64,000 nt of DNA, from IMG/VR virus record IMGVR_UViG_3300020383_000006, positions 1-64,000 of that record. One strand, 5' to 3'. Below the pieces are notes generated by a model. The model was not told where the DNA came from, did not search any database, and saw nothing but the letters and a program-made list of their open reading frames with translations. Every line of letters begins with the position of its first letter. Position 1 is the stretch's first letter. Positions 34,759 through 56,564 of this stretch are shown one piece after another. The translations under genes were made by a program, and so were the position numbers. This DNA is from a virus.

Positions 34759-34834
34759 TGGTGCCCCACGACTGGGTTCGAACCAGCAACCCTCCGATTA
34801 TGAGTCGGACGCTCTACCGTTGAGCTACGGGGGC
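34759..34834 (-). tRNA. tRNA with CAT anticodon, probably Ile2 (lysidine)
   Basis: GCCCCCG acceptor (C4-G69, C5-G68 as in Ile2), TCCGA-CTCATAA-TCGGA, TTCGAAC, CCA; one bulged U in the acceptor stem. Confidence 0.85.
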
Positions 34835-34840
34835 ATTAAG

Positions 34841-35484
34841 TGGTGGTTCCCTAGTCAAGGAGATACTATGAACCACCTGCTAACGTTATTATCAGTTTTC
34901 CACGAGACCATGTACAGCCTATCTGATTTCCTTAATAAAAATTCTATTCAGGCAGGGATTACCACTAATTAGCTTGGACACCCTCTTTTTCTTCTCAACT
35001 ACCAAACAACAAGGAGGTAATTAAGCGAGATATAACTCTCACAAGTGACAAATTGCTTTAGAATTGAATCTAGCCACAGTTAACTCAACTCCAGAGCCGC
35101 TATATTTCAGTTTTATGATGAGTGCCCTTAGCGGTAAGGACTCATTCTTTTAGGGCGAACCCATTTTACTGATTACTATGCACCTAACGTCCATGACCGC
35201 TTGCGACTTACTAATAACCAGTAAAATGGGTGGTACACTACGCAGTACCCAGCGGAATATTTGGTGACAAGGCTAATTATTCGGGCGAAAAGCTCCACCA
35301 CAGAGCTTTTCTAAGCCTTGATGGCTAGTAGCTTATTAGGCTACCGCTGCCATATTAAAGTGTGAATCGTTTGCAGTTATAACGATTAATTACAGTTGCA
35401 AATAAGGCGACGACTCCCTACCTGACTCGGTGCGGTTAACACCTGAAAACCTAAACTTGATTTAGGCTTTTAGCTATTAACTAC
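34841..35484 (-). ncRNA. Large tmRNA-like structured RNA lacking a canonical tRNA-like domain
   Basis: Own promoter; ATAACT-GCA resume context, tag ANDSHFNMAAVA** (35374-35336), H5-like hairpin, pseudoknots, long-range helix; no protein ORF. Confidence 0.7.
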
Positions 35485-35489
35485 AATTA

Positions 35490-35518
35490 ATGATAATCAA
35501 TTATTTTTTAAAAGTAAA
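35490..35518 (-). promoter_or_regulatory. T4-type early promoter for the large ncRNA
   Basis: GTTTACT-N17-TATCAT. Confidence 0.8.
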
Positions 35519-35532
35519 CCTTTATAAGAAAT

Positions 35533-35639
35533 TTCCCTAGAGACTTGCTCGGCAAACAAGATTTTTGGGTCTGATTTTGTCATGACGAACATAAAGTTTA
35601 GCGGTTGATTAATCCACAGACAGCCTAAACTCTAGGGAA
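35533..35639 (-). ncRNA. ~107-nt structured RNA downstream of tRNA-Arg
   Basis: Perfect 10-bp closing stem TTCCCTAGAG/CTCTAGGGAA plus internal helices. Confidence 0.5.
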
Positions 35640-35643
35640 TAAA

Positions 35644-35720
35644 TGGCACGGACGGTAGGACTCGAACCTACGACCAAGAGCTTAGAAGGCTCCTGCTCTA
35701 TCCAACTGAGCTACGCCCGC
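35644..35720 (-). tRNA. tRNA-Arg(TCT)
   Basis: Cloverleaf, GGAGC-CTTCTAA-GCTCT, GCCA end; promoter TTTACT-N17-TACCAT at 35742-35770. Confidence 0.95.
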
Positions 35721-35774
35721 ATTTAAACTTTCAATGTAATTATGGTAATATATTTAATTTAAAAAGTAAACCTT

Positions 35775-54755: not shown

Positions 54756-54783
54756 TTATTTTTAAATTATTTTCAAAAAAAGG

Positions 54784-54812
54784 TTTACTTTTATTTTTAA
54801 CTGATTTAATAT
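54784..54812 (+). promoter_or_regulatory. T4-type early promoter for the tRNA-operon leader
   Basis: GTTTACT-N17-TAATAT with an A/T-rich UP region. Confidence 0.8.
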
Positions 54813-56492: not shown

Positions 56493-56564
56493 GGGGCTGG
56501 TTCTTGGTGACGGAAGATGGTTTGCAACCATTTGAGGAGGGTTCGATTCCCTCTAGCTCCACCA
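56493..56564 (+). tRNA. tRNA-Ala(TGC) with reduced D region
   Basis: GGGGCTG/TAGCTCC with G3-U70 and A73; GATGG-TTTGCAA-CCATT. Confidence 0.8.

Follow-up and report, generated by a model that had tools for sequence, protein, structure and literature searches.

The first 64 kilobases (kb) of the 145.5-kb virus record IMGVR_UViG_3300020383_000006 (G+C 34%), the stretch of 64,000 nucleotides (nt) that was analysed here and is called the window, carry on the minus strand a gene of about 650 nt (34841-35484), located between a tRNA-Arg gene and a tRNA gene with a CAT anticodon. There is good support for regarding its RNA as a derivative of transfer-messenger RNA (tmRNA) that has no tRNA half, and the phage probably uses it to rewrite or jam the system by which the host tags unfinished proteins. 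tmRNA is defined by a tRNA-like part and a template joined in one particle. The natural reductions of tmRNA that have been described all keep the tRNA-like part, and a template-only descendant is the opposite case, which raises the question whether a template can be handed to the ribosome in trans or whether the phage makes an RNA whose dedicated role is to inhibit ribosome rescue. Whichever holds, it would reveal a new layer of phage takeover of host translation, would offer a natural tool for dissecting the placement of the resume codon, and would account for gaps left unannotated within the tRNA regions of phage genomes by the hundred.

The core of the RNA is a short tag-coding frame, which an earlier note on this DNA had picked out from the letters alone and which was recovered as described. 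The sequence AUAACU is followed by GCA at 35374, and 12 sense codons run from there to 35339 and encode ANDSHFNMAAVA; together with the stops the codons read GCA AAC GAU UCA CAC UUU AAU AUG GCA GCG GUA GCC UAA UAA (35374-35333, minus strand). The note had argued that this is not an ordinary open reading frame (ORF), and indeed an in-frame TAA lies six codons upstream, with ATG, GTG and TTG all absent between that TAA and the GCA. A 33-nt hairpin at 35353-35321 carries both stops in its 7-nt loop, as had been proposed. The RNA strand of the region is free of ORFs of 50 or more codons, and the G+C content of the region is 39% versus 34% for the genome. A natural variant, 35361 T>C, seen in a metatranscriptome contig, changes His to Arg in the variable part of the tag. 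The parts of the template region, all on the minus strand, are as follows.

35375-35392, minus strand: pre-resume region, with the in-frame UAA at 35392-35390 and AUAACU at positions -6 to -1.
35339-35374, minus strand: tag frame of 12 codons, GCA to GCC, encoding ANDSHFNMAAVA.
35333-35338, minus strand: tandem stops UAA UAA in the loop of the helix-5 equivalent.
35321-35353, minus strand: helix-5 equivalent, AUGGC..GUAGC, loop CUAAUAA, GCUAC..GCCAU, from the fold and the tmRNA-model alignment.

Likeness to the mRNA-like domain of tmRNA, which the earlier note had asserted from the sequence, was borne out by two models that align the resume context, the tag frame and helix 5. Positions 86-140 of the Rfam tmRNA model (RF00023) align to 35381-35324, a stretch that covers all three, and the score of 10.2 bits (E ~0.08) is sub-threshold against a gathering cutoff of 47 bits. 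The second model, R1, is the covariance model of an alignment of 54 representatives of tmRNA-like RNAs without a tRNA-like domain from enterobacterial phages, here called headless RNAs and described below. It matches 35185-35420 with 27.1 bits (E = 2e-6), the sole significant match in the 145-kb genome, and this alignment takes in the resume context, the tag, helix 5 and, of the first pseudoknot module, the outer helix. The pre-resume region aligns both to the Rfam tmRNA consensus AAUAAuUGCaAACgA and to R1. Since genuine tmRNAs, standard as well as permuted, score alike with R1 (19-27 bits), the match shows likeness to the template region of tmRNA and not a closer kinship with the enterobacterial RNAs.

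The tRNA-like domain was searched for in several ways. ARAGORN gave no tmRNA at the RNA, standard or permuted, even with a relaxed threshold, and none of the Rfam 15 families matched over the RNA at gathering threshold; this agrees with the partial or missing Rfam match that had been expected, the only match at E up to 10 in 34838-35640 being the sub-threshold tmRNA one. GOLLD and ROOL gave no match at E up to 10 in the same interval and none at gathering threshold over the whole window. A scan for the T-arm motif found none inside the RNA, the GGGG acceptor start is absent from the 5' end, and both ends fold as hairpins. The equivalent of pair 3:70 in the 3' hairpin is U-A or A, with no G3-U70. 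The 3' hairpin was also considered as an acceptor/T minihelix (12-13 base pairs (bp), ending in A or ACCA) and was rejected, as it has neither G3-U70 nor the T-loop signature. When the tmRNA model was run over the whole genome, the RNA itself was not among the matches, the best of which was a tRNA-Ala gene. The model of two-piece tmRNA (RF04321) matched in the genome only on tRNAs of the array, and a 20.9-bit match at 35336-35443 was not reproduced on a repeat search. The SmpB, SspB and ClpP families were searched for in the phage and none was found, so that factors of the host would be needed for any function in tagging.

The carrier is an abundant marine T4-like phage. Its major capsid protein is of the T4 gp23 type; the counterpart in Pseudomonas phage pf16 is 63.6% identical, and the counterparts in the marine myophages Melnitz, HTVC008M and Mosig are about 50% identical. 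A protein flanking the RNA gene recurs in Tara, JGI, ENA and Logan marine assemblies, and almost all runs containing the stretch are marine. Two full-length copies from other ocean samples (L005 and L006) differ from the window RNA by four substitutions that without exception fall in the 3' hairpins, where one leaves its pair as a wobble and two convert an A/G mismatch to a U-A pair in the last hairpin. Beyond such near-identical copies, broad searches yielded only two relatives, L060 and L054, both truncated at the 5' side. In both, the 12 codons and the TAATAA in the loop are kept, the tags being ANDSVYNMQMAA in L060 and ANDDVYSVAKVA in L054, and helix 5 shows compensatory differences between the window RNA and each of them. 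Conservation of the frame, which the earlier note had put forward as a check, is therefore seen in these two partial relatives. The RNA of L060 ends at an intrinsic terminator about 120 nt past the resume codon (L060:1-130). Just downstream of it, at L060:221-844, lies a gene for a ClpP-family protease (PF00574, 56.7 bits), probably the prohead protease.

Other searches returned little. No match to the RNA was obtained by blastn against 50,697 phage records, and a search of IMG/VR for related loci through the flanking DNA-binding protein and helicase gave none. Homologues of the flanking protein were found only on near-identical Tara, ENA and Logan contigs, and a protein with 37% identity belongs to another phage, in which there is no gap of this kind. 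Metagenome and genome contigs were scanned by pattern for marine relatives, which produced only one true permuted tmRNA and chance matches, and an IMG/VR scan for the ANDS..NM subtype produced L060 alone. The anticodon arm of the downstream tRNA, used as a scan pattern, led to 16 loci, and the RNA was absent from all of them; a tag-like match among these was discarded, being the C-terminus of an HNH protein. The genome of pf16, the nearest cultured relative, had no R1 match, and the paper describing that genome likewise reports no such RNA (PMC5587285).

The RNA has its own promoter, of a class shared with the tRNA genes of the phage. The promoter that the earlier note had placed just upstream was found as TTTACT-17-TATCAT at 35518-35490 on the minus strand, with 9 of 12 consensus matches. 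Its -35 element is part of a 12-mer, AGGTTTACTTTT, which occurs exactly three times in the window, each time preceding RNA genes; that it stands only ahead of the tRNA-Arg gene, the RNA and the tRNA array argues for a real promoter class serving RNA genes.

35490-35521, minus strand: promoter of the RNA with the extended motif AGGTTTACTTTT.
35510-35521, minus strand: AGGTTTACTTTT ahead of the RNA.
35762-35773, minus strand: AGGTTTACTTTT ahead of tRNA-Arg.
54781-54792, plus strand: AGGTTTACTTTT ahead of the tRNA array.

Part of the stretch was found in seven RNA libraries. In three metatranscriptomes, which come from two studies, contigs align to 34826-35145 and 35207-35443 with 99-100% identity; a fourth RNA run gave contigs across the whole 4.5 kb. 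These contigs are consistent with a transcribed RNA, short of proof. The contigs of X8, X9 and X11 take in the RNA and little of the flanking genes, to which no weight is given, as a lack of coverage proves nothing and the runs were chosen through this very stretch. The contigs stop at 35443 in a pair of runs belonging to the same study, and at 35417 in another; no 5' end is mapped by these stops, and the start placed by the earlier note carries an uncertainty of some 5-20 nt. The note had staked its proposal on three points, namely a tag frame conserved in homologues, transcription as a stable RNA and the lack of a full match to a described non-tmRNA family, and nothing observed here contradicts any of them. 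DNA and RNA assemblies from many samples all break within about 35135-35207, at the 20-bp inverted repeat of the RNA. Most simply these are assembly breaks at the repeat and not an end of the RNA, and they probably explain why short contigs holding the whole gene are rare.

The predicted fold is unusually stable, with a minimum free energy (MFE) of -206 kcal/mol versus -165 +/- 5 for dinucleotide shuffles (z = -7.8). Its main elements had been proposed in the earlier note and reappeared here. The 11-bp long-range helix (35425-35415 with 34958-34948) is present in both the MFE and the centroid folds, and the stem of about 20 bp corresponds to an inverted repeat, 35159-35178 with 35212-35231, of 20 nt and 90% complementarity. 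Both pseudoknot candidates hold at the level of sequence, the first with nine perfect pairs, the loop UGUGGUG and CACCA downstream, the second with the loop CCGCUA and UAGCGG (35134-35129 with 35102-35097). The hairpin at the 3' end, which ends in GGAACCACCA, does lie 6 nt from the CAT tRNA. In all, three pseudoknot-like modules are predicted, and a clear first pseudoknot (PK1) was not seen. The outer helix of the PK2-like module is aligned by R1 with stem 1 of PK2 of the headless family. The pseudoknots and the closing helix of the window RNA are predictions, and the available full-length copies are near-identical and hence without covariation.

35431-35485, minus strand: long hairpin at the 5' terminus, in the MFE and centroid folds; it occupies the place of the 5' acceptor strand and D-loop of tmRNA.
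35415-35425 (5' strand) with 34948-34958 (3' strand), minus strand: predicted closing helix, like helix 2, with one G-U pair.
35262-35320, minus strand: PK2-like module, outer helix CAAGGCU/AGCCUUG and inner 9-bp hairpin; loop-tail pairing predicted.
35159-35255, minus strand: PK3-like module, CCGCU, a small hairpin and the 20-bp hairpin with AGCGG in its loop.
35097-35148, minus strand: predicted PK4-like module, hairpin loop CCGCUA and downstream UAGCGG.
34959-35096, minus strand: extra folded domain to which no tmRNA counterpart is assigned; alternative long-range pairings exist.
34841-34947, minus strand: 3' hairpins, the last being GGUGGUUC...GAACCACC plus A, in the place of the T arm and acceptor 3' strand of tmRNA.

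The window holds 24 tRNA genes, 22 of them in an array at 55-63 kb and two flanking the RNA gene. Three of these genes bear on the RNA.

34763-34834, minus strand: tRNA with a CAT anticodon, 6 nt downstream of the RNA.
35644-35720, minus strand: tRNA-Arg(TCT), flanking the RNA gene.
56493-56564, plus strand: odd tRNA-Ala(UGC), 69 nt plus CCA, a possible alanine-accepting partner.

The tRNA-Ala has the ends GGGGCUG / UAGCUCC-ACCA together with G3-U70 and A73, and its D region (UUCUUGG-UGACGG) is shortened in a way reminiscent of the D-loop of tmRNA. It has the lowest tRNA-model score among the tRNAs of the phage (34.8 bits) and the best tmRNA-model match in the phage (31.9 bits, positions 1-374, with the whole middle of the model deleted). 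An ordinary tRNA-Met reaches 25.9 bits with the tmRNA model, several other phage tRNAs have odd D arms, and the ordinary tRNA-Ala of the Felix-like phage humlepung gave no tmRNA-model match. The tRNA-Ala could be derived from the tRNA-like domain of a tmRNA, or the reverse. The segment 35300-35291 of the RNA (minus strand), UGGUGGAGCU, is perfectly complementary to the last 10 nt of this tRNA (AGCUCCACCA, 56555-56564), and the same 10 nt end the E. coli tmRNA. It is the longest match among the 24 tRNAs, the others having at most 8 nt, and a match of at least 10 nt somewhere arises in 2.4% of shuffles. In the fold UGGUGGAGCU sits in the loop and 3' strand of the first hairpin after the tag. The same loop can alternatively pair with the internal CACCA or with the 3'-terminal CCACCA of the RNA itself. 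Duplex energies calculated for the whole tRNA and RNA molecules were uninformative.

Headless RNAs also occur in phages of enterobacteria. Broad pattern scans found tag-like frames with no ARAGORN tmRNA in SSU5-type phage-plasmids, and BLAST from these sequences led to Felixounavirus, Kolesnikvirus, Kuttervirus, N4-like phages and Klebsiella siphophages; 742 phage records matched, the matched region being mostly unannotated. A motif scan of IMG/VR gave at least 126 loci, among them that of humlepung (L100:2499-2700), with an ARAGORN tmRNA in none among the matches listed. In the alignment of 54 representatives, helix 5 and two H-type pseudoknots covary strongly: 94.5% of cells form standard pairs, compared with only 29-48% in slid controls, 19 of 23 pairs change on both sides, and the observed score was reached by none of 500 shuffles. 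The tag frame is open for 10 codons in all 54 and is closed at codon 11 by a stop in every one (TAA 50, TGA 2, TAG 2). All 54 have Ala at codon 10, written variously as GCT, GCC or GCG, and the other two frames contain stops in 51 and 42 of the 54. Because of this coding signature across the family, the enterobacterial templates appear to be read. Their conserved 5' end (..UAGUUUUCGU..; GUUUUCG) is antisense to codons 3-6 of the E. coli ssrA tag (GAC GAA AAC UAC), perfectly over 10-12 nt in 38 of the 54 representatives. In the phages' own tag this ssrA sequence is avoided. A literature search found no paper describing these RNAs.

The window RNA resembles the enterobacterial ones in having its own promoter or a position in a tRNA cluster, often with a tRNA directly downstream, and in the resume context, the AND... 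tag, the stops in the loop, helix 5 followed by pseudoknots and the absence of the tRNA-like domain. The enterobacterial RNAs, however, start with GUUUUCG, have a tag of 10 codons and a core of about 170-200 nt and possess no closing helix, whereas the window RNA measures about 650 nt, has 12 codons in its tag and includes a 5' hairpin and a predicted closing helix. The sequence GGUUUUCAGG is present in the window RNA at 35452-35443, but as the 3' strand and tail of the 5' hairpin, and the GAUUAAUAA linker of PK3 in the headless family aligns weakly to it. Given the differences in codon number, 5' hairpin, closing helix and size, a separate loss can be proposed, and the window RNA probably arose by an independent loss of the tRNA-like domain from a tmRNA of the one-piece type. 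The window thereby extends the phenomenon from enterobacterial phages to a marine T4-like phage, with a larger architecture that still has the closing helix.

Among known RNAs, the one-piece tmRNA (SsrA, RF00023) shares with the window RNA the U/A of the resume context at -5/-4, the GCA resume codon, a tag that starts AND... and has a hydrophobic -xA end, and the two stops in the helix-5 loop; the predicted fold of the window RNA adds pseudoknot-like modules beyond helix 5 and a long helix that closes the whole, as in tmRNA. It differs in length, about 360 nt compared with about 650 nt, and in the parts that the window RNA does not have, namely the acceptor stem, D-loop, T arm, G3-U70 and a functional CCA context, in place of which there are terminal hairpins; as far as the sequence tells, the window RNA is not alanylatable. 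The T4 tRNA cluster encodes stable RNAs C and D (also called species 1 and 2), small non-tRNA RNAs that tRNA processing enzymes release and that are not known to have a tag frame or tmRNA likeness. They are alike, by description only, as stable non-tRNA RNAs among the tRNA genes of a T4-type phage. Two-piece permuted tmRNAs occur in Alphaproteobacteria, some Betaproteobacteria, cyanobacteria and marine myophages such as Melnitz (RF04321; PMC9004378). In these the tag template likewise lies on a separate RNA molecule, an arrangement common in related marine phages, but there the 5' acceptor strand opens the coding piece, which pairs with an acceptor piece of the same precursor; the window RNA has no acceptor strand and no acceptor piece upstream. 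Forms that consist of the tRNA-like domain only, with no coding sequence, are found in jakobid mitochondria, some plastids and mycobacteriophage DS6A (PMC11915505), and a recent paper on a tmRNA database contains only this opposite reduction, with DS6A among its examples. They resemble the window RNA in that one half of tmRNA is left, in one case on a phage and reported to interfere with the host tmRNA, and they are its mirror image, as they keep the tRNA-like half and have lost the template.

How the RNA may act can be outlined as follows. It would be a stable, highly folded molecule of about 600-650 nt, descended from tmRNA with the tRNA-like domain lost, and its 3' end would, to judge from position, be set by RNase P cleavage of the downstream CAT tRNA. 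By itself it would presumably be neither alanylated nor admitted to the ribosome. Because it could not be charged, its reading would have to follow entry of an alanyl tRNA-like domain with SmpB, and as SmpB is not encoded by the phage, the host tmRNA would most simply be the one to provide it. A stalled ribosome already entered by Ala-tmRNA-SmpB would then be offered the phage RNA as template, or the phage RNA would compete for that role. Rescued proteins would receive an (A)ANDSHFNMAAVA tag instead of the host tag, or host tagging would be diverted; proteins so tagged would carry ...AANDSHFNMAAVA ends. That the RNA is a free-standing template acting in trans and placing a phage tag on rescued proteins is the reading we favor, with a little less than even confidence. 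The -VA end of the tag might, as the earlier note suggested, alter recognition by ClpXP. A more specific form, in which the unattached template is loaded after entry of either the host Ala-tmRNA-SmpB or the phage tRNA-Ala-like RNA, the degradation tag is rewritten to end in -AVA and not -LAA, rescued proteins thereby meet another fate in the infected cell, and the marine and enterobacterial RNAs are independent losses, seems unlikely when taken as a whole.

Several points weigh against a template in trans. For translation of the tag and contact with the ribosome the proposal draws on sequence and models, and the pseudoknots and closing helix are predicted only in this lineage, from near-identical full-length copies. 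The RNA-library contigs give no ends, strand or level, and DNA carry-over is possible. Common descent with the enterobacterial family does not follow from R1, which does not separate the RNA from true tmRNAs. In the published structures of tmRNA on the ribosome, loading of the template depends on its tether to the tRNA-like domain. The window RNA has no evident tether, and this is the main argument for a decoy over a template. The sole candidate docking element is the 10-nt complement to alanine acceptor 3' ends, and both strands of the putative duplex lie in stable helices.

In the decoy alternative, the RNA is an untranslated mimic that soaks up SmpB, S1, RNase R or the host tmRNA, for instance by pairing with its 3' end, and shuts down host trans-translation. 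This is possible though doubtful. It would account for the missing tRNA-like domain in a phage with no SmpB, for the complementarity of 35300-35291 to the final 10 nt that E. coli tmRNA and the phage tRNA-Ala have in common, and, in the enterobacterial RNAs, for the 5' end antisense to the ssrA tag codons in 38 of 54 representatives; there is also a precedent in the tRNA-like-domain-only RNA of phage DS6A, reported to inhibit host tmRNA (PMC11915505). A decoy, however, does not need an open frame, and yet the frame, its length class and the in-frame stops in the loop are kept in the relatives. Moreover, the 10-nt complement is partly in a 9-bp hairpin stem and its target in an acceptor stem.

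A split tmRNA encoded entirely by the phage, with the tRNA-Ala at 56493-56564 as the tRNA-like half and the RNA as the template half on unlinked genes, is improbable. The tmRNA-like reduced D region, G3-U70 and A73 of the tRNA-Ala speak for it, as do its standing as the weakest of the phage tRNAs by the tRNA model and the best by the tmRNA model, the lack of a tmRNA-model match for the humlepung tRNA-Ala, and the complementarity of its 3' end to the RNA. But the tRNA has a regular anticodon arm (U33-UGC-A37) and is the only tRNA-Ala of the phage, so that it is most simply a decoding tRNA, and in a split tmRNA the anticodon arm would take the place of SmpB. The 25.9 bits of the tRNA-Met imply that the tmRNA-model score mainly reflects the acceptor and T arms, and odd D arms are not peculiar to this tRNA. 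In addition, no stand-alone tRNA-like domain was found in three phages with headless RNAs.

It is still less probable that the RNA is a functionless, decaying remnant of a captured tmRNA gene. The absence of such an RNA from pf16 and the very few relatives in any collection searched would fit a remnant; the promoter of the RNA-gene class, the very strong fold, the intact frame with its tandem stops, the near-identity of copies across ocean samples, the substitutions in the 3' hairpins that preserve or improve pairing and the presence in RNA libraries argue the other way. That the RNA is instead one of the large structured phage RNAs found beside tRNAs, like GOLLD or ROOL, with no kinship to tmRNA and a tag-like stretch by chance, is hardly credible: its size, ornate fold and position beside tRNAs and the Rfam tmRNA score of only 10.2 bits would suit it, but no Rfam family reaches threshold and the only one seen at E up to 10 is tmRNA itself, the resume context, the in-phase 12-codon frame and the hairpin-loop stops occur together and recur in L060 and L054, and R1 gives an E value of 2e-6.

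Two further small elements were noted. In humlepung an unannotated tRNA-like RNA follows directly after the headless RNA (L100:2701-2783, plus strand); it has C1-G72, G3-U70, A73 and an encoded CCA, scores 31.7 bits with the Rfam tRNA model and has homologues in rV5-like and jumbo phages. In the window, about 107 nt between tRNA-Arg and the promoter of the RNA (35533-35639, minus strand) gave no Rfam match and contain no ORF; they are closed by a 10-bp stem, UUCCCUAGAG/CUCUAGGGAA, and may be a terminator-like element or a further small RNA.

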